From: Rhodocyclaceae bacterium
Lineage (GTDB): Bacteria > Pseudomonadota > Gammaproteobacteria > Burkholderiales > Rhodocyclaceae
DNA length: 64,000 nucleotides
NCBI GenBank assembly: GCA_020445665.1
Contig: JAGRGD010000278.1
Location: 12,987 to 76,986, forward strand
Direction: 5' to 3'
A model generated the notes under the pieces. It did no database searches. It saw nothing but the letters and a program-made list of their open reading frames with translations, and had not been told where the DNA came from. This document shows positions 24,674 to 50,440 of this stretch, piece by piece. The first letter of the stretch is position 1; the number at the start of each line of letters is the position of its first letter. Both the position numbers and the translations under genes were made by a program.

Positions 24674-24922
24674 TCGGGGGACTGGGTGAGGTTCGGTGGG
24701 GAGGCGAATGGTGGCACGGGCGGGCCCGCAGCTTCAATAGCCAGGCGCCGGGCGCCGGAATCTTTGCGTTTCCTTATAAGTGTTGCGGAATATTTGAAAA
24801 CGCTACCGTTCGTCCCTTTGGCAATTGACGTGGGAAATTGTTCCTCAAGAATGTCATAAACCATCACACGAATGGGGTTTTCAGCACCTCGAGCCTGCTC
24901 AATGACATTTCAGGGGGTACGC

Positions 24923-26884
24923 ATGTCACATCTCAAGCATCTGATGCGGAAGTCGCTTCCGCTATTCGTCGCCGTTGCGGCTTTGCCAGCGACGGCCCTT
25001 GCCGACCTCTCCGCGGTTCCTGACTCACTGGAACTGGTGCGTGGCGAAAAGGCCCGTATCCAGATTCTTGGCGCGGAGAGTCGTCTGCGGCTCCGGAACT
25101 CCGATGACGACGTCGTCGAGGCAAAGCTGAGATACGGGACGGTCCGTGTCGAGGCCGATCACACCGGTACGGCGATCCTGCGTGTCTGGGACCGGGAGTC
25201 GTCCGTATCGATTCCGGTCACGGTCCGGCGCGAGCGGGACGACGACGACCATGAAGGCGGCGGCGACAATGGCGGCGGTGGCGATACCGGCGGTGGTGGC
25301 GATACCGGCGGCGGGGGCGGGGGAGGCGGCACACTCAGCGGTGACTTCACCCTGCTGGGCTGGAACGATCTGGGCATGCACTGCATGGATGCCGACTATT
25401 CCGTGTTCTCGATCCTGCCGCCCTTCAACAACCTGCACGCGCAACTGGTCGGCAAGAATGGCCAGGGTGTCGTGACCCAGGGCGTCACTCTGACATTCCA
25501 GTCGCTGGCGGACCCGGATGGTTCGGTCAACAGCTTCTCGACCGGGAAGACCAACTTCTGGCAGTACGAGGATGTGCTGTTCGGGGTGTCCCTGCCCGAT
25601 GGCCGCGGTCTCGCGGGCTATGACACGGCCGGCCCTGCGGCTCAGACCATGGTGCTCGACGCCGAGCGGGGCCAGTTCGTGGCCGAGGGTATCCCGATTA
25701 CGCCGTACGACGACGCCGGCGCCAAGAACTTCTATCCGCTGGTAAAGGTCTCGGCCCACGATGGCAACGGCAACCTGCTCGCCGAGGCCCGTGTGGTGCT
25801 GCCGGTCTCGGACGAGATGACCTGTGTCGGCTGTCACGGATCCGGCGCTGGCCCGGATGCACGGCCCCAGGCCGGATGGGTCAATGATCCGGACCCCGAG
25901 CGCGACTATCGGCGCAACATCCTGCGCCTGCATGACGAGGAGCAGCTCGGCAATCTGCGCTTCCAGGAAGCCCTCACCCAGTTTGGCTACTCGCCCGCCG
26001 GTCTGCAGGCCACCGCAGACAGTGGTCGTCCGATCCTGTGCGCGAGCTGTCACGGTTCCAACGCGCTGCCGGGCACCGGTACCGAAGGGATCAGCCCGCT
26101 GACCGAAGCGATGCACAAGCAGCATGCCAGCTCGGCAGACCCGGTCACCGGTCAACTGCTCGGCGACAGCACCAACCGCAGCGCCTGCTATCAGTGCCAC
26201 CCGGGCTCCGAGACCCGCTGCCTGCGGGGGGTGATGGGCAATGCCGTCGAAGCGGACGGCTCGCTCTCGATGCAGTGCCAGAACTGCCACGGCCAGATGG
26301 CCGACGTCGGGCGGGAGGGGCGCGTAGGCTGGCTCGAGCAACCGGACTGCCAGAGCTGCCACCATGACGGCCAGCGCGAGACCTCGTCGCTCGACACGGA
26401 GGGTCAGCTCAAGACCTGGGCCGACACCCGCTATGCCACGAACGCCAACGTACCGGAGGCGGGCTTCAACCTATACCGCTTTAGCAAGGGCCACGGCGAG
26501 TTGCAGTGCGAAGCCTGTCATGGCTCAACCCATGCGGAGTATCCGAGTTCCCACCGCAACGACAACCTGCTCTCGCAGGATGTTCAGGGGCGGGACGGCA
26601 CGATCGGCGAATGCACGGCCTGCCATGCCACGATGCCAGACACCACCACTGGTGGCCCCCACGGCATGCACACGGTCGGCAGCCGCTGGGTCGACCGGCA
26701 CGAGGATGTGGCCGAGCGCAGCACCCGGGATTGCGCTTACTGCCATGGTTCGGACTTCCGCGGCAGCCCGCTGTCCGAGGTGAAGGTGGCGCGCAGCTTC
26801 CGGGCCGAGGGCCGCACCGTCCAGTATGCGGTAGGGGATCAGGTCGGTTGCTACGACTGCCACAACGGGCCCGACGGCGACTGA
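24923..26884 (+). CDS. Secreted multihaem c-type cytochrome (9 CXXCH) with an N-terminal Ig-like domain and a Gly/Asp-rich linker
   Basis: The signal peptide is MSHLKHLMRKSLPLFVAVAALPATALA. A Big2-like segment (LELVRGEKARIQILG...TGTAILRVWD) follows, then the linker GGGDNGGGGDTGGGGDTGGGGGGGG. Haem motifs are CVGCH, CASCH, CYQCH, CQNCH, CQSCH, CEACH, CTACH, CAYCH and CYDCH. Confidence 0.85.
   Translation: MSHLKHLMRKSLPLFVAVAALPATALADLSAVPDSLELVRGEKARIQILGAESRLRLRNSDDDVVEAKLRYGTVRVEADHTGTAILRVWDRESSVSIPVTVRRERDDDDHEGGGDNGGGGDTGGGGDTGGGGGGGGTLSGDFTLLGWNDLGMHCMDADYSVFSILPPFNNLHAQLVGKNGQGVVTQGVTLTFQSLADPDGSVNSFSTGKTNFWQYEDVLFGVSLPDGRGLAGYDTAGPAAQTMVLDAERGQFVAEGIPITPYDDAGAKNFYPLVKVSAHDGNGNLLAEARVVLPVSDEMTCVGCHGSGAGPDARPQAGWVNDPDPERDYRRNILRLHDEEQLGNLRFQEALTQFGYSPAGLQATADSGRPILCASCHGSNALPGTGTEGISPLTEAMHKQHASSADPVTGQLLGDSTNRSACYQCHPGSETRCLRGVMGNAVEADGSLSMQCQNCHGQMADVGREGRVGWLEQPDCQSCHHDGQRETSSLDTEGQLKTWADTRYATNANVPEAGFNLYRFSKGHGELQCEACHGSTHAEYPSSHRNDNLLSQDVQGRDGTIGECTACHATMPDTTTGGPHGMHTVGSRWVDRHEDVAERSTRDCAYCHGSDFRGSPLSEVKVARSFRAEGRTVQYAVGDQVGCYDCHNGPDGD
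25274..25309 (+). repeat. 2 x 18-nt tandem repeat inside the cytochrome linker (encodes GGGGDT twice)
   Basis: GGCGGTGGCGATACCGGC is directly followed by GGTGGTGGCGATACCGGC (1 mismatch). It sits within a longer GGN run at about 25253..25330. Confidence 0.8.
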
Positions 26885-26988: not shown

Positions 26989-27897
26989 ATGAGCATGATG
27001 GCCGACGATCCCGTCTTCATCCCTTCCAGCGTGCGCGCGGCCATCACGATCCGCAATGCCGCGGAGGATCCGTGCATCAATGATGTGGCGATCCAGCGTA
27101 TGGTGGCAGCCGAGCCGACGGTGGCCGCAGCGCTGCTCCGGCTCGCCAACAGCGCGACCTACCGTCGGGGCAAGCTCGTCGAATCCGTCGCGGATGCGGT
27201 CATGCTGCTTGGCATGGGGGAGGTCCGCGCGGTGGCATCCCAGGTCGCGATGCTGCAGATCGTCAGGGGCATTCGCGGTCGTGCTGCGCGCCTGGTGGCG
27301 GAGAACCTGCTGCTGCACTCCATCTCGGTATCCACATTCGCCGAACAGATTGCGCGGGGCATCGACGGCTGCGAGCCGGGGCGGGTTGCTACCCTGGGCC
27401 TGTTCCACGAGATGCCGACCTTCCTGCTGCTGGCCGGATCCAACCAGTCACCCGAGAAATTCGAGACCCTCGCCGACATCAGCCGGCTCGCCGAGACGGT
27501 GCCGCTGCGCAGCTTCGAACTGCTGATGCAGGACTTCGGCCTGCACTCGCTGGCCATCCCCCGCGTGGTGGAAGCCGAGGCCGTCGAGCAGGCCCACCTC
27601 TACGTGACTCACCCCAATCCCCTGCGCATGCACCCGCTGGAAGGTGGCGAGCGAAAGGGCATGGCGCCAGAGCAGATCGTCCTCCTCCAGGCGATGGCCG
27701 ATGCCGCCTATGTGACCCTGGTCGAGGGACCGCTTCCGGCTTCCCGGGATGCGCACCCCCCACCCTGCGAGGAGATGCTCGAGATGCCCGTCGAGGAAGC
27801 CGATGGGGAGCCCGTCACGCCCCCCCAGGCGCCGCCGCGCGGTGGCCTGGTGGCGAAACTTCAGGCCATGCTGGGGACGCTGTTCGGATCACGTTGA
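26989..27897 (+). CDS. HDOD domain-containing signalling protein
   Basis: VAIQRMVAAEPTVAAALLRLANSATYRRGKLVESVADAVMLLGMGEVRAVA is the typical HDOD core. Confidence 0.8.
   Translation: MSMMADDPVFIPSSVRAAITIRNAAEDPCINDVAIQRMVAAEPTVAAALLRLANSATYRRGKLVESVADAVMLLGMGEVRAVASQVAMLQIVRGIRGRAARLVAENLLLHSISVSTFAEQIARGIDGCEPGRVATLGLFHEMPTFLLLAGSNQSPEKFETLADISRLAETVPLRSFELLMQDFGLHSLAIPRVVEAEAVEQAHLYVTHPNPLRMHPLEGGERKGMAPEQIVLLQAMADAAYVTLVEGPLPASRDAHPPPCEEMLEMPVEEADGEPVTPPQAPPRGGLVAKLQAMLGTLFGSR

Positions 27898-28341: not shown

Positions 28342-28345
<4 letters not shown>
27962..28345 (+). CDS. Hemerythrin-like (bacteriohemerythrin) protein
   Basis: The start is MEGKDSRDPHLDHGIQ.... His/Glu ligand spacing is H-FEAEEHLM...EHRAEHHRLLDE...HIDEVD. 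AAGGAGA lies upstream of the ATG at 27962. Confidence 0.75.
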
Positions 28346-30006
<1,661 letters not shown>

Positions 30007-30080: not shown

Positions 30081-30716
30081 TCAGGCGGCCAGTGGCGCTG
30101 CCGACTCGGGCGCCTCGACTGGTCGATGGAGCAGCACGGCGGGCGCGCCGACGCGGCTGCAGATGCGCTGTTCGCCGATCTGTGAAAAGCCGAAGCGCTG
30201 GATGTAGAAGCGGGCGTGGCGCGGATTGACCTCAATGACCAGATCGGTGATCGGTGGCTGCTGCGAGAGGTGGCCGATGGCCTGCTGAAAGAGGGCGAGC
30301 AGCATCGTCGCCGGAGGGCAGGGCGCATCAATGGCGAGCCGCGTCACTTCAGCCAGGCGCCGGCTGGCGCCGCGCAGGCGATCAATTTCGTGGCGGTAGT
30401 GGGCGTCGGCCTGGAGCCCGGCAATGGAGTCCAGCCCGAGGCGCAGGGTCGCCCACAGATCGGCGCCCTTGCGCGCCAGCACCGTGACGCCCGGGAGGCG
30501 CTCGCCAGTGCCGCCCACGCCGACACGTAGCCCGCGCTGCTGATAGCGGCGGTTGGCAAGGGACTGGGCGGCGGCGAGGTGTCCGGTGCGGACCTCGAAG
30601 CGCAGTCCGCAGAGGGGATCCTGAGCGCGGGACAGATCGTGCTCGAAACCGTAAGGGCACTTCGGGCGGGGCGTTCCCGCGTGCCACAGGGAGGGTACGG
30701 ACAACATCGGGGTCAT
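30081..30716 (-). CDS. FeeM-like N-acyl amino acid synthase (GNAT-fold acyltransferase) candidate
   Basis: LRFEVRTGHLAAAQSLANRRYQQRGL...TLRLGLDS..GLQADAHYRHEIDRLRGASRRLAEVTRLAI...TDLVIEVNPRHARFYIQRFGFSQIGEQRICSRVGAPAVLL matches the remembered FeeM-family layout, especially the VNPRH.RFY..LGF...G motif. GGGAGA lies 6 nt before the ATG. The gene sits 35 nt downstream of the bactofilin gene. Confidence 0.6.
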   Translation of the reverse strand: MTPMLSVPSLWHAGTPRPKCPYGFEHDLSRAQDPLCGLRFEVRTGHLAAAQSLANRRYQQRGLRVGVGGTGERLPGVTVLARKGADLWATLRLGLDSIAGLQADAHYRHEIDRLRGASRRLAEVTRLAIDAPCPPATMLLALFQQAIGHLSQQPPITDLVIEVNPRHARFYIQRFGFSQIGEQRICSRVGAPAVLLHRPVEAPESAAPLAA

Positions 30717-30751
30717 CGGAGGGTCTCCCTGCGTCGCGGGTCGTCGGTCGG

Positions 30752-31348
30752 TCAGGCTTTTGAGGCGACCAGGGGCTTGACGGTGGCAGACTTGGCTGCG
30801 TCTTCGGAGTTCATCGACTGCACATCGCCGCTGACGATGCCGCCCTCCTCGATCAGGATCTTGCCGTAGCGGATCACGCCGCTGACCTTGCCGGTGGCGT
30901 GGATGATGAGTTGCTTGCGGGCGGTCAGTTCGCCCTCGAAATCACCATGGACCTCGGCCACGTCGATGCAGACCTTGCCCGAGAAAGAGCCCTTCTCGGC
31001 GATGCGGATGACCCGGCTGTCCATCGTGGCCTCGACCCGGCCTTCGACGACGAGGGTGTCGCAGTCGAGGATCTCGGCGCCCTTCAGTTTCACGTCCGGT
31101 CCGACAATCAGCTGGCTGCCCATGGTCTCGGTCTCGGTGGCGCTGTTGTCGGTGGCGTTCATGGCGGCGGTCTCTTGCGGTTGGGTGGCGTCCGGAGTGT
31201 CGTTGGAAAGGCTGCCGCCAGCGTGTGCTGCCGAGGCGGCCGTGAGGCTCGAAGGGCCGCGATTGGCCAGGTTGTTCGGGTACGTCGGGCGACGCTCCGG
31301 CACGCTCGCACCGGTGGGCTTCGCGAATAGATTCTGCTTGTTGAACAT
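30752..31348 (-). CDS. Bactofilin family polymer-forming protein
   Basis: The C-terminal beta-helix repeat is LIVGPDVKLKGAEILDCDTLVVEGRVEATMDS..GSFSGKVCIDVAEVHGDFEGEL..ATGKVSGVIRYGKILIEEGGIVSGDV. The N-terminus MFNKQNLFAKP resembles bactofilin membrane-targeting peptides. AGGAAGG lies before the ATG at 31348. Confidence 0.8.
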   Translation of the reverse strand: MFNKQNLFAKPTGASVPERRPTYPNNLANRGPSSLTAASAAHAGGSLSNDTPDATQPQETAAMNATDNSATETETMGSQLIVGPDVKLKGAEILDCDTLVVEGRVEATMDSRVIRIAEKGSFSGKVCIDVAEVHGDFEGELTARKQLIIHATGKVSGVIRYGKILIEEGGIVSGDVQSMNSEDAAKSATVKPLVASKA

Positions 31349-31403: not shown

Positions 31404-31419
31404 GGCAATTGGCGTGCCA
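31404..31419 (-). promoter_or_regulatory. Sigma54 (-24/-12) promoter of the bactofilin operon
   Basis: The minus strand reads TGGCACG-ccaa-TTGCC, against the consensus TGGCACG-N4-TTGCW. The predicted start is near 31393, 45 nt before the ATG. Confidence 0.75.
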
Positions 31420-31438
31420 GCAAGGGAATATTTCACAG

Positions 31439-31451
31439 AATCAATCGTTTG
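31439..31451. promoter_or_regulatory. IHF consensus site between the UAS and the sigma54 promoter
   Basis: AATCAATCGTTTG matches WATCAANNNNTTR at every defined position. Confidence 0.55.
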
Positions 31452-31495: not shown

Positions 31496-31513
31496 TGTCG
31501 CTATCTGGCGACA
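31496..31513. promoter_or_regulatory. Palindromic enhancer-binding-protein site A (TGTCGC-N6-GCGACA)
   Basis: It has the TGTC-N10-GACA form. Its centre is about 111 nt upstream of the predicted minus-strand start. Confidence 0.6.
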
Positions 31514-31564: not shown

Positions 31565-31582
31565 TGTCGTGGAAAGACGACA
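31565..31582. promoter_or_regulatory. Palindromic enhancer-binding-protein site B (TGTCGT-N6-ACGACA)
   Basis: This is a second TGTC-N10-GACA palindrome, 69 nt from site A and about 180 nt upstream of the predicted minus-strand start. Confidence 0.5.
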
Positions 31583-31682: not shown

Positions 31683-33095
31683 ATGCGCAGTCCGTCCTTC
31701 CGCCAATATCTCCTCCTCGCTTTCCTGTTGATCATCGCGGTCCTGACCGCGGCGGCCATGCAGGGCCTGTTTGTGCTCGAGGACTTCGCCAGTCGCAGCC
31801 GCAGTGCCGCGTCGGACGCGCTGCGCCTGTCGCGCGTGGTGCAACTGCTCGGAGAGCGTGCCGTCGACATGACCCGCAGCGCGCGCCAGTACCAGGTCCT
31901 CGGCGAAGCCGCGCTGCTTGAGCGCTTCTCGGAGAGCCGACGCGAGGCCGACGAGGCCATCGTCGGCCTGTCGGGTCTGGCCATGAGCGACCAGGCGGCG
32001 CTTACACAACAGCTTTCCGACTGGCGCATGAGTGCGGAGCGGGTCGAGCACCTCCTGCGGGACACCTCGAATGCCGAGGCATTGGGCGTGGAACTGAACC
32101 GCCTGGCCGCACTGGGCGGATTGGTTTCCGGTGCCGCACGACAGACCATCGAGCGTCACAACCAGTTGCTGTTCGACGCGCTCGACGACAATCGCGCGCG
32201 GCTGACGACCCACGTCTTCGCCGCGGTGTGCATCGGGATCCTGCTGGCCCTGGCGTTCGGGACCTGGCTGGTCCGCTCCCTCGGGCGGCTCGAAAAGGCG
32301 ATCGAGGCGCTCGGCGACGGCTATTCCGACCAGGCGGTGGTGGTCGGCGGGCCCCACGACCTGCGCCAGGTCGGCGACCGCCTCGAGTGGCTGCGGGAGC
32401 GGCTCAACGAGCTGGAAGCCGACCGCTCGCGCGTCCTGCGCCATGTCTCCCACGAACTGAAGACGCCGCTTGCTGCCATGCGCGAGGGCGTCTCGCTGCT
32501 CGATGACCGGATCCTGGGACCTCTGGTGGCACCCCAGCGGGAGGTGGTCGGCATCCTGAAGCACAACTGTGCGACGCTCCAGACCCGGATCGAGGCCCTG
32601 CTGGGGGTCAACGCCGCGGCCTTCGATGCCCGGCGCCTGAGCCTGGCCCGCATCGAGCCGGTGGCCCTGCTGCGTCGCGTGGCGGCGGATCAGGCGCTAC
32701 AGGTCCAGCAGCGTCGCCTCGAGCTGTCGGTCGAGGGTGAGGCCGATCCGATCGAGGCGGACGGCGAGAAGATCTCGCTGGTGCTCGCCAACCTGCTCGC
32801 CAACGCCATCGCCTTCAGTCCCGAGGGCTCGCTGATCCGGCTGATTGCCCGGCGCCAGGGCAAGCGCCTGCTGCTCGACTGTATCGACGAGGGGCCGGGG
32901 ATTGCGCCGGAGGACGCGCAACGGATCTTCGATCCCTTCTACCGCGGCAGCCTGCAGCCCGAAGGGCGTGAGAACGGGACCGGCATCGGGCTGTCCATCG
33001 TGCGGGAATATGCCATGGCGCATGGCGGCAGCGTGGTGCTCGTGCCGGCCGCCCTGGGCTGTCATTTCAGGGTTGAACTGCCATATGAACGTTGA
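31683..33095 (+). CDS. glrK: Sensor histidine kinase, GlrK/QseE type
   Basis: The layout is two TM segments, HAMP, the H-box region VLRHVSHELKTPLAAMREGVSLLDDRILGPL..QREVV.IL and an HATPase domain. It reads like E. coli GlrK as remembered and has the same gene order, kinase-lipoprotein-regulator. Confidence 0.75.
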   Translation: MRSPSFRQYLLLAFLLIIAVLTAAAMQGLFVLEDFASRSRSAASDALRLSRVVQLLGERAVDMTRSARQYQVLGEAALLERFSESRREADEAIVGLSGLAMSDQAALTQQLSDWRMSAERVEHLLRDTSNAEALGVELNRLAALGGLVSGAARQTIERHNQLLFDALDDNRARLTTHVFAAVCIGILLALAFGTWLVRSLGRLEKAIEALGDGYSDQAVVVGGPHDLRQVGDRLEWLRERLNELEADRSRVLRHVSHELKTPLAAMREGVSLLDDRILGPLVAPQREVVGILKHNCATLQTRIEALLGVNAAAFDARRLSLARIEPVALLRRVAADQALQVQQRRLELSVEGEADPIEADGEKISLVLANLLANAIAFSPEGSLIRLIARRQGKRLLLDCIDEGPGIAPEDAQRIFDPFYRGSLQPEGRENGTGIGLSIVREYAMAHGGSVVLVPAALGCHFRVELPYER

Positions 33096-33671
33096 ACGAG
33101 CCGTGGCTCTGGCGACCATCGTCGCCGTCGTGAGCGGCTGCGCGCTCGAGCGCGCAGCCCCGCCACCGGGCGTGGAAGAGCCGGATCCGCCGGTGATCGT
33201 CGAGCAGGCCTCGCCGGTGCTGGCCGCCGACGTGAACCTGCGGGCAATCCTGGCCTTCTATCGCAAGTCGCGGGGCATGTCCCGGGCCGAGCTCATCGCC
33301 GAGCGCAAGGCCCTGGAGGGCAGCGACGGGCGGCCCCTGGACGAATTGCGCCTGGCGATGCTGCTCGGTCAGGAGCGCAGCGACCTGGTGCGCGCCCTGG
33401 GCCTGCTCGACGCCATCGCCCGCTCCGACAATCCACAGGCCCTTGCCCTGCAGCCGCTCGCCCGACTGCTCTCCGACCAGTACGCCGAGCGGCTCAAGCT
33501 CGAGACCCAGTCGGAGCGGCTCGGGGTCAATATCCGCGACGCCGAGAAGCGGGCGGCCGCAGCGACAGCGCAGGCACGTGAACTGCAAGAGAAGATCGAC
33601 GCGCTCGCCGAGATCGAGCGCAACCTGCCCGGGCGGCCTGCGCCTCCCGTGCCGACAGGAGGAACCAACCG

Positions 33672-33675
<4 letters not shown>
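33085..33675 (+). CDS. Lipoprotein encoded between kinase and regulator (positional analogue of QseG/YfhG)
   Basis: MNVERAVALATIVAVVSGC|A carries a lipobox and the C-terminus is a coiled coil. It overlaps the kinase by 11 nt and the regulator by 4 nt. Confidence 0.6.
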
Positions 33676-35069
<1,394 letters not shown>

Positions 35070-35102
35070 ATCTTGCCAAAACAACGGCTTGTGCAGTTCA
35101 TG

Positions 35103-35136
35103 CGGCATCCTGTCGGGGTGACCCGACAGGATGCCG
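35103..35136. promoter_or_regulatory. Perfect 15-bp-arm palindrome containing site C (TGTCGG-N6-CCGACA)
   Basis: CGGCATCCTGTCGGG-gtga-CCCGACAGGATGCCG. The TGTC-N10-GACA core is at 35111..35128, centred about 110 nt upstream of the predicted start of the BON gene. No U-tract follows, so it is a poor terminator. Confidence 0.6.
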
Positions 35137-35168
35137 GTGCGTGATCGGGGCGTGGGGCGATATTGCGT

Positions 35169-35181
35169 TTTCAAGTCGTTG
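35169..35181. promoter_or_regulatory. IHF-like site (one mismatch) between site C and the sigma54 promoter
   Basis: TTTCAAGTCGTTG compared with WATCAANNNNTTR. An AT-rich stretch (GAATAATAAATAGATT) lies next to it. Confidence 0.35.
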
Positions 35182-35203
35182 AATAATAAATAGATTGGCG
35201 GGT

Positions 35204-35219
35204 TGGCACGATGCTCGCA
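35204..35219 (+). promoter_or_regulatory. Sigma54 (-24/-12) promoter of the BON-domain gene
   Basis: TGGCACG-atgc-TCGCA against the consensus TGGCACG-N4-TTGCW. The predicted start is near 35230. Confidence 0.7.
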
Positions 35220-35270: not shown

Positions 35271-35603
35271 GTGAAGCAACGCAGTGCCATTGCAGGGATT
35301 CTGGCCACCGCGGCCCTGGCCTTCGCCATATCGCTGAGCGCCAATGCCGAGAACGGCAGCGCCCGGCGGGTTTCGGTCGATACCGCGGTGGACGCGGCCA
35401 TCAACGGCAAGGTCGCGGCGGCTCTGATGTCGGATCCCGGCCTGCTCGGTGCGCGTATCGATGTAGACACTCACGATGGGATCGTCCGGCTTGCGGGAAC
35501 CGTGGTCGGTGCCGCCGACCTGCGCCGGGCGCTTGATATCGCATCGCAGGTCGAAGGTGTACGGCGGGTGGACAACCTGCTGGAGGTTACGCGCCGACCC
35601 TAG
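35271..35603 (+). CDS. Secreted BON domain protein (OsmY-like, single BON)
   Basis: A GTG start at 35271 sits 6 nt after AGGAGA. The signal peptide is VKQRSAIAGILATAALAFAISLSANA. The BON core is GKVAAALMSDPGLLGARIDVDTHDGIVRLAGTV...VEGVRRVDNLLEV. The track ATG at 35211 lies inside the -12 element, so I reject it. Confidence 0.8.
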   Translation: MKQRSAIAGILATAALAFAISLSANAENGSARRVSVDTAVDAAINGKVAAALMSDPGLLGARIDVDTHDGIVRLAGTVVGAADLRRALDIASQVEGVRRVDNLLEVTRRP

Positions 35604-50267: not shown

Positions 50268-50432
50268 CTGTCCCTTGTACCTGAGAGATTGCCGCCATCC
50301 GGCAGCGTGCCCCTTCGGTGGACGGCCAGACTGCCGTCGCTCTCCAGATTTGTCCTGCTGCCTGCGGTCCGTTTGCCTGAGCGGTTCCGGGGGTTACGCC
50401 TTCGGCGGCTCTCTCGAGCACTCTCCCACAGG
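50268..50432 (-). promoter_or_regulatory. Tandem glycine riboswitch (two aptamers)
   Basis: Minus-strand aptamer 1 reads GGGAGAG...GCCGAAGGCG...CUCAGGCAAACGGAC. Aptamer 2 reads CUGGAGAG...CACCGAAGGGGCA...CUCUCAGGUACAAGGGACAG. Both carry the conserved glycine-aptamer core strings and sit upstream of gcvT. Confidence 0.9.
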
Positions 50433-50440
50433 TCGGCCGG

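Follow-up and report, generated by a model that had tools for sequence, protein, structure and literature searches.

Which targets are under the control of GlrK/GlrR (QseE/QseF)-type systems outside the enterobacteria, in which the small RNAs GlmY and GlmZ are the known ones, to what use could a cell put an inducible bactofilin, and which role do FeeM-type N-acyl amino acids, mostly known from metagenomic clones, play in their native hosts? These questions are raised by one locus in a 64,000-nucleotide (nt) stretch of DNA from a Rhodocyclaceae bacterium (GenBank assembly GCA_020445665.1, contig JAGRGD010000278.1, positions 12,987 to 76,986 of the forward strand), hereafter called the window, in which a bactofilin gene is followed by a gene for a FeeM-family N-acyltransferase. 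Bactofilins are usually seen as morphogenetic scaffolds that are made constitutively and serve cell-wall enzymes. In this locus, a bactofilin clade appears as the primary, promoter-proximal output of a σ54-dependent two-component system that senses the envelope, and in one subclade a lipid-amide synthase accompanies it. The original prediction, made from the sequence alone, had described the two genes as co-transcribed under σ54/envelope-sensor control, with the acyltransferase as a new kind of bactofilin client. We consider it probable, at roughly 60%, that the locus is a σ54-dependent operon under a divergently encoded three-component system consisting of a GlrK-type kinase, a QseG-like lipoprotein and a GlrR-type regulator. 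It probably represents an undescribed bactofilin operon that is induced by an envelope signal and carries a lineage-specific acyltransferase partner.

Both genes were found at the coordinates originally given. The bactofilin gene (30752..31348, minus strand) encodes 198 amino acids (aa), and the acyltransferase gene (30081..30716, minus strand) encodes 211 aa. They are separated by a 35-nt spacer (30717..30751, minus strand), in which we can read the ribosome-binding site (RBS) that had been proposed for the second gene: the motif GGGAGA (30729..30724) lies after the TGA stop codon of the bactofilin gene, with 7 nt between it and the second ATG (30716). As described below, this arrangement recurs as a conserved gene pair, which supports the suggested co-transcription.

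The region between the bactofilin gene and the divergent kinase gene comprises 334 nt and contains, in the direction of the bactofilin gene, two palindromes, a site for integration host factor (IHF) and a σ54 element. A palindrome scan located the distal GlrR-type palindrome at 31565..31582, some 100 nt before the start codon of the kinase gene, and the proximal one, TGTCGC-N6-GCGACA, 69 nt away at 31496..31513; both agree with the E. coli GlrR consensus. Palindromes of the form TGTCG-N8-CGACA occur four times in the window, with 0.1 expected, and are arranged as two pairs with 66-69 nt between their members. The IHF-consensus site AATCAATCGTTTG (31439..31451, plus strand) is placed between these activator boxes and the σ54 promoter, and the window holds no other exact match to WATCAANNNNTTR. 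The –24/–12 element TGGCACGCCAATTGC (31405..31419, minus strand) begins 71 nt before the ATG of the bactofilin gene and is the sole match to TGGCAC-N5-TTGC within the window. In E. coli, GlrR recognizes the consensus TGTCN10GACA, and the σ54 promoter of glmY requires IHF (PMC3045617).

The position of this promoter also bears on the start of the bactofilin gene. An alternative TTG start at 31423, which would give a protein of 223 aa, is unlikely because it lies upstream of the σ54 promoter; we therefore take the ATG at 31348, which is preceded by the RBS GAGGAAGG, as the start codon.

Divergently from the bactofilin gene, three genes on the plus strand encode the putative signaling system. The first (31683..33095) codes for a GlrK-like sensor histidine kinase of 470 aa with HAMP, HisKA and HATPase_c domains, which shares 32% identity with E. 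coli GlrK over residues 25-470, practically its entire length (E 8e-57). It is followed by the gene for a lipoprotein of 196 aa (33085..33675; lipobox VSGC), which stands where QseG is encoded in E. coli. Conserved in orthologues of this lipoprotein are the lipobox and, at the C-terminus, the motif LDxLA(D/E)IERxLPxRP. Pairwise BLAST revealed no similarity between the lipoprotein and E. coli QseG, weak matches to the Pfam family YfhG/QseG were obtained for seven of 12 orthologues (best E 2e-4), and an hhalign comparison with QseG (E 4.6e-4, probability 33%) covered the C-terminal LDxLxDIERxLxxR motif only. The third gene (33672..35069) encodes a GlrR-like σ54-dependent response regulator of 465 aa, which shares 58% identity with E. 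coli GlrR across 437 aa, the C-terminal helix-turn-helix included; its best NCBIfam model is GlrR with 620 bits, followed by NtrC with 413 bits.

A second promoter of the same design was found at the other end of this gene cluster (35045..35218, plus strand). Its two palindromes (35045-35062 and 35111-35128, 66 nt apart) overlap the 3' end of the regulator gene, and a σ54 element, TGGCACGATGCTCGC, is located at 35204-35218, followed by an RBS and the GTG start of a gene for a secreted, OsmY-like BON-domain protein (35271..35603, plus strand). The product of this gene matches Pfam BON with 58 bits and has OsmY as its best NCBIfam match; the GTG at 35271 is its likely start, leading into a signal peptide. 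The ATG listed at 35211 is an unlikely start because it lies inside the σ54 element. The distance from the proximal box to TGGCAC is almost the same at both promoters, 94 nt at the bactofilin and 93 nt at the BON promoter. Because GlrR consensus boxes and σ54 elements are found on each side, we recognize a glmY-type design at two promoters flanking the system. In all loci that have a BON gene behind the regulator gene, this second promoter is conserved, and the BON gene may be a second output, placed under the same kind of promoter as the bactofilin-FeeM pair.

To what extent this arrangement is conserved was addressed in a survey of FeeM loci, for which one genome per species was scanned and the flanks of the best 80 loci were annotated with phmmer. 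In 49 of these species-representative loci, from about fifty Rhodocyclales species, a bactofilin gene directly precedes the FeeM gene on the same strand, and the divergent kinase-lipoprotein-regulator cluster is present in nearly all bactofilin-linked loci with enough flanking sequence. The carriers comprise Rhodocyclaceae, metagenome-assembled genomes of Zoogloeaceae, and the genera Dechloromonas, Azonexus, Ferribacterium, Propionivibrio and Accumulibacter. Two GlrR-type boxes and a σ54 element at fixed distances were found in 49 of the 51 loci with upstream DNA: the boxes start 207-238 and 142-173 nt and the σ54 element 53-75 nt before the bactofilin ATG. Boxes and σ54 element also precede bactofilin orthologues that lack a FeeM gene. 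The control that had been postulated for the pair is thus strongly supported, by GlrR-type boxes together with an IHF site and the –24/–12 element, all at fixed spacing. The identity of the motifs with those of the E. coli system, together with their strict conservation, makes it very probable that the adjacent three-component system regulates the operon; that its regulator binds the boxes we infer from the same analogy. In metagenome contigs L101, L137, L154 and L161, an open reading frame (ORF) of about 380-400 aa resembling a σ54 activator lies directly upstream of the bactofilin gene and divergent from it; here, kinase and lipoprotein genes are missing, and the regulator may be a receiver-less or orphan variant.

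We then turned to the proteins themselves; the profile searches that had been suggested for them place both in the expected Pfam families above the cut-offs. The bactofilin matches PF04519 with 62.3 bits (cut-off 27.9) at residues 81-176. An AlphaFold2 model built on 41 homologues agrees with the predicted β-helix core and disordered N-terminal region: residues 76-180 form an all-β core with a predicted local distance difference test score (pLDDT) above 90, and residues 1-74 are modeled with low confidence, as expected for a disordered tail. The best Foldseek matches of this model in the PDB are a Thermus thermophilus bactofilin (6rib) and Caulobacter crescentus BacA (2n3d), with template modeling (TM) scores on the target of 0.80 and 0.74, at E-values of only about 0.1.

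The protein starts with MFNKQNLFAK, for which a resemblance to the membrane-targeting peptide of BacA had been noted. The membrane-targeting sequence of BacA is MFSKQAKS, the global consensus is MFSKKKK, and the key residues are M1, F2, K4 and K7 (PMC12448750). M1, F2 and K4 are indeed common to both proteins, and position 7 is a leucine instead of a lysine in the window. K4 is conserved, K10 is present in more than 90% of the sequences, and all 52 bactofilins of the module loci begin with M-F-(N/S/T)-K. We therefore regard the N-terminus as a putative membrane-targeting peptide of the MF(N/S)K type.

The 211-aa protein had been assigned to the FeeM-type enzymes, and model match, fold and a conserved glutamate all bear this out. 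It matches the Pfam family FeeM (PF21926) with 117.5 bits (cut-off 27) at residues 50-197, and when a profile of 35 homologues was compared with the PDB, FeeM (2G0B) was the sole match (E 2.9e-20). The AlphaFold2 model (pLDDT 83) shows a GNAT-like domain at residues 38-200 between disordered ends (residues 1-37 and 204-211). Its top six Foldseek matches are all chains of 2g0b, with E-values of 1e-12 to 5e-11 and TM scores of 0.74-0.79 on the target; these are followed by the N-acylhomoserine lactone (AHL) synthase LasI and then by generic GNAT proteins. E123, which is invariant in the 35 homologues, aligns with Glu95 of FeeM (located in the sequence AEVVQFAMD) and is the putative catalytic residue. 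Glu95 is treated as catalytic in FeeM, a role supported by mutagenesis of Glu103 in Nas354 (PMC4897644). Based on family membership and this conserved glutamate, we think it reasonably likely that the enzyme makes a product of the N-acyl amino acid type. Membership in the exosortase-associated synthases was also considered. These PEP-CTERM/exosortase-associated N-acyl amino acid synthases are represented by the NCBIfam model TIGR03694. This assignment was rejected: the sole NCBIfam match at E ≤ 1 was PRK14852 with 41.8 bits, and no exosortase or PEP-CTERM genes were found in the conserved neighborhoods.

A neighbor-joining tree of 88 FeeM ORFs places all 52 bactofilin-linked genes in one clade of 56. 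The exceptions within this clade are a solitary Propionivibrio copy, a tandem duplicate, a gene on a short contig and one next to a bactofilin remnant in Accumulibacter. The tandem copy is a second FeeM gene after the linked one in a Propionivibrio locus (L073, 1633-3019). At the Accumulibacter locus (sp. UW18; L079, 5012-5809), only an ORF of 146 aa lies between kinase and FeeM gene; it contains an internal bactofilin-like peptide (VFKKPKV...) and a tail and lacks the β-helix core, and it looks decayed or truncated. The intercistronic spacer varies from a 4-nt overlap to 153 nt, and in roughly a third of the loci an in-frame start overlaps the bactofilin stop codon, both based on heuristic start assignment. 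Between the window and Azonexaceae, the bactofilin core is about 80% and the enzyme about 38% identical, so that conservation of the core is by far the greater.

The rest of the 80 loci harbor other FeeM paralogues in different contexts, for instance next to PilZ, ThiF or nitroreductase genes, in Thiobacillus, Nitrosospira, Hydrogenophilales and Parazoarcus. The nearest paralogues, from Thiobacillus, Nitrosospira and related genera, are found in FeeM-ThiF-nitroreductase clusters. Several of them, in Thiobacillaceae and metagenome contigs (255-265 aa; L003, 6001-9514; L004, 6001-11019; L005), adjoin genes for PilZ, ThiF-like and nitroreductase proteins, with no bactofilin gene. The tyzABC cluster of Mycobacterium tuberculosis resembles such FeeM-PilZ-ThiF-like-nitroreductase neighborhoods (PMC10404671).

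Denitromonas, Nitrogeniibacter, Azoarcus, Aromatoleum, Thauera and Methylophilaceae possess close orthologues of the bactofilin, too. The three-component system of Nitrogeniibacter aestuarii, Azoarcus sp. DD4 and Thauera linaloolentis faces a bactofilin gene preceded by the boxes and a GG-N10-GC element, and no FeeM gene follows; on a Methylophilaceae contig, the bactofilin gene has near-consensus boxes and no adjacent system. In Azoarcus sp. DD4 (L088, 6614-7261) and Thauera linaloolentis (L090, 6654-7301), the place taken by the FeeM gene in the window's clade is held by a gene for a lytic transglycosylase (SLT), which is convergent with the bactofilin gene. A metagenome scan with the bactofilin profile yielded 59 loci of this bactofilin clade with both flanks: 16 carry kinase and FeeM genes, 20 the kinase gene only and 23 neither of the two, and a FeeM gene without a kinase gene was not observed among them. 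Most bactofilin genes without an adjacent system still have boxes and/or a σ54 element. Taken together, these distributions indicate that the conserved core consists of regulator, promoter and bactofilin, not of the bactofilin-FeeM pair. Because bactofilin orthologues without FeeM exist, the FeeM gene appears as a lineage-specific second cistron nested in an older unit of GlrR boxes, σ54 promoter and bactofilin.

Based on these observations, we propose the following course of events. A periplasmic or envelope signal, the nature of which we infer, would activate the kinase, upon which the phosphorylated GlrR-like regulator would bind both TGTC-N10-GACA boxes. IHF would bend the DNA, and σ54 RNA polymerase would fire from the TGGCAC-N5-TTGC promoter. 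Two flanking transcripts would thereby be induced, the operon of bactofilin and FeeM-like gene on one side and the gene for the periplasmic BON-domain protein on the other. The bactofilin, with its long disordered tail and extremely conserved β-helix, would be the core output and would presumably polymerize on the cytoplasmic side of the inner membrane. The FeeM-family enzyme would have been added as second cistron in one subclade, comprising the window's Rhodocyclaceae group, Azonexaceae, Propionivibrio and Accumulibacter. It would most likely move a fatty acyl group from an acyl carrier protein (ACP) to an amine, probably of an amino acid, and the resulting lipid of the N-acyl amino acid type would be made at or near the membrane while bactofilin is produced.

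The whole of this picture is drawn from comparative sequence analysis, and how firmly its parts are joined depends on several points that weigh against it. Some concern the signaling system: the 620 bits of the regulator are below the NCBIfam equivalog cut-off for GlrR of 763, and the homology of the lipoprotein to QseG is weak. Others concern the place of the enzyme. No FeeM gene is present in 43 of the 59 metagenome loci (about 73%) of this bactofilin clade; in most lineages the orthologous bactofilin manages without FeeM, which is therefore not needed for its core role. A member of the linked FeeM clade stands alone in an unrelated context in Propionivibrio (L171, identical to L013, 6001-6606). 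The module is confined to one order, and part of the synteny could reflect inheritance instead of selection. Three further observations bear on physical contact between the two proteins. A search for fusions with a FeeM profile hidden Markov model (HMM) against 1.84 billion representative proteins gave 4,037 family members, and among the top 150 that were inspected we found no bactofilin-FeeM fusion, only single-domain proteins and one tandem FeeM; the ten longest FeeM representatives likewise had no bactofilin domain according to Pfam. No column in an alignment of 121 bactofilins separates those linked to FeeM from those without it. In the alignment of 35 homologues, the enzyme's disordered N-terminal tail lacks conservation and contains no conserved motif. 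The tests that bear on physical coupling are thus all negative or uninformative.

Coupling is nevertheless what the original prediction had in mind: a bactofilin polymer that brings the FeeM-like enzyme to the membrane by physical contact, or activates it there allosterically, and so localizes the N-acyl product. The linkage is tight and long-lived, holding for 52 of the 56 members of the FeeM clade, and the frequent start/stop overlaps suggest translational coupling, with the heuristic starts borne in mind. Bactofilins recruit enzymes via short peptides, for example PbpC (PMC12448750), and the tail of about 37 aa on the enzyme could serve as a tether. With FeeM missing from most loci of the clade, and with neither fusions, a FeeM-specific bactofilin residue nor a conserved tail motif to set beside this linkage, the client idea is plausible and somewhat weakened. 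In its full form, with bactofilin as a stress-inducible membrane scaffold that is switched on by the GlrK/QseG/GlrR-type sensor and places or activates an acyl-ACP-dependent N-acyltransferase and an N-acyl amino acid lipid made locally in envelope stress, we rate it as rather unlikely. The same observations can be read such that bactofilin, FeeM-like enzyme and BON protein belong to one envelope-stress regulon and act separately, the enzyme gene having landed behind the sole strong regulated promoter of the locus. This fits the bactofilin genes of Azoarcus, Thauera and Nitrogeniibacter, which are monocistronic under the same promoter, the BON gene as a sign of a regulon with several unrelated outputs, and a bactofilin that carries no signature of co-adaptation to FeeM. 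It fits less well with the near-exclusive linkage of the FeeM clade to bactofilin, which exceeds what regulon membership needs, or with the frequent start/stop overlap, and we regard such separate action as a tentative possibility.

Two further readings assign the enzyme a different substrate or product. It might N-acylate the bactofilin itself, for example at a lysine of the MFNK...K tail, and so tune membrane binding. Other acyl-ACP-dependent GNAT-like enzymes, the HlyC/ApxC-type toxin acyltransferases, acylate lysines of proteins, and co-translation of the two genes, the GNAT-like fold of the acyl-ACP type and the conserved lysines K4 and K10 (>90%) in the N-terminal peptide would suit this role. 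All characterized members of the FeeM family acylate small molecules, and the N-terminal motif likewise occurs in FeeM-less orthologues and in bactofilins generally, which makes lipidation of bactofilin very improbable. The structural match to LasI, second only to FeeM, could point to an AHL-synthase-like autoinducer synthase with a quorum-sensing-type output. We rejected this reading, which retains hardly any probability, since the model matches FeeM far better than LasI (E 1e-12 versus 4e-7) and no LuxR-type receptor gene is present in the conserved neighborhoods; in addition, the sequence profiles match only FeeM. We thus retain the σ54-dependent operon controlled by the divergent three-component system, with bactofilin as its core output.

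All parts of this operon come from known families, and it is their combination, an inducible bactofilin, a glmY-type promoter and an acyltransferase partner, that is undescribed. A 2025 paper on membrane binding of bactofilins names PbpC as the sole client reported for BacA (PMC12448750). A literature search returned no description of a bactofilin-FeeM or bactofilin-σ54/QseF pairing among the best-ranked papers, and a search that paired bactofilin with the carrier genera returned no bactofilin paper among those ranked best. If the proposed relationships are true, the acyltransferase would be the first enzymatic client of a bactofilin outside the cell wall, and for GlrKR-type systems outside Enterobacteriaceae the locus would provide the first protein-coding regulon to be defined. 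The carriers include key wastewater organisms (Accumulibacter, Dechloromonas and Propionivibrio), and Dechloromonas, Ferribacterium, Azoarcus and Thauera offer cultivable carriers for the questions raised at the outset.

Some neighboring features of the window remain to be placed. Downstream of the FeeM-like gene, at a distance of 74 nt, lies ettA (28342..30006, minus strand; NCBIfam EttA, 971 bits), and scans detected no terminator-like hairpin or σ70 promoter between the two genes, which leaves read-through into ettA conceivable. Only some members of the clade have ettA at this place; since the Propionivibrio and Accumulibacter loci lack it downstream, we treat it as a neighbor that is probably not a member of the module. 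Farther away, an ORF of 670 aa (24872-26884, plus strand) with Gly/Asp-rich GGGDTGGGG repeats and many CxxCH motifs points to a multihaem cytochrome (weak QrcA match) and is followed by a gene for an HDOD-domain protein (26989-27897). A glycine riboswitch aptamer (50355-50438, minus strand; RF00504, 61 bits) is the sole Rfam match in the window.

Among known systems, a close parallel is GlrK (QseE)/QseG/GlrR (QseF) of E. coli, with which the window shares the gene order kinase, lipoprotein, regulator, and a target directly beside the kinase gene. The promoters have the same build as the σ54 promoters of glmY and glmZ, that is, TGTC-N10-GACA boxes, an IHF site and a –24/–12 element. The targets differ: in the window they are protein-coding (bactofilin plus FeeM-like gene, and BON), whereas those in E. 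coli are the small RNAs GlmY and GlmZ, neither of which has an Rfam match in the window. Moreover, the window promoter has two boxes and a target divergent from the kinase gene, while the E. coli system has three boxes and a co-directional target. The lipoprotein is only remotely QseG-like, and the regulator scores below the equivalog threshold of GlrR.

With FeeM and Nas354, the enzyme has in common the Pfam family, the fold, the catalytic glutamate and a size of about 200 aa. It is about 25-28% identical to FeeM and belongs to a distinct, Rhodocyclales-restricted and bactofilin-linked clade; unlike these enzymes' settings, the window lacks a fee-type cluster of ACP and tailoring genes, and the enzyme lacks the PilZ domain of Nas354. 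TyzA of M. tuberculosis, which has ThiF-like and nitroreductase partners, is likewise of the FeeM family, but the gene in the window has neither a ThiF nor a nitroreductase neighbor and falls into a clade separate from the tyz-type paralogues.

On the side of the scaffold, a close comparison is BacA-PbpC of C. crescentus, which shares with the window a canonical bactofilin, an MF-x-K peptide and a linked enzyme gene. Other modules of bactofilin and client are BacA-LmdC in Hyphomonas and Rhodospirillum and CcmA-Csd5/7 in Helicobacter pylori. These known clients are cell-wall synthases or hydrolases with a cytoplasmic tail, whereas the partner in the window is a soluble acyltransferase of the GNAT fold. 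Furthermore, expression of the window's bactofilin appears to be inducible via a two-component system and σ54, and its partner is dispensable in most lineages.

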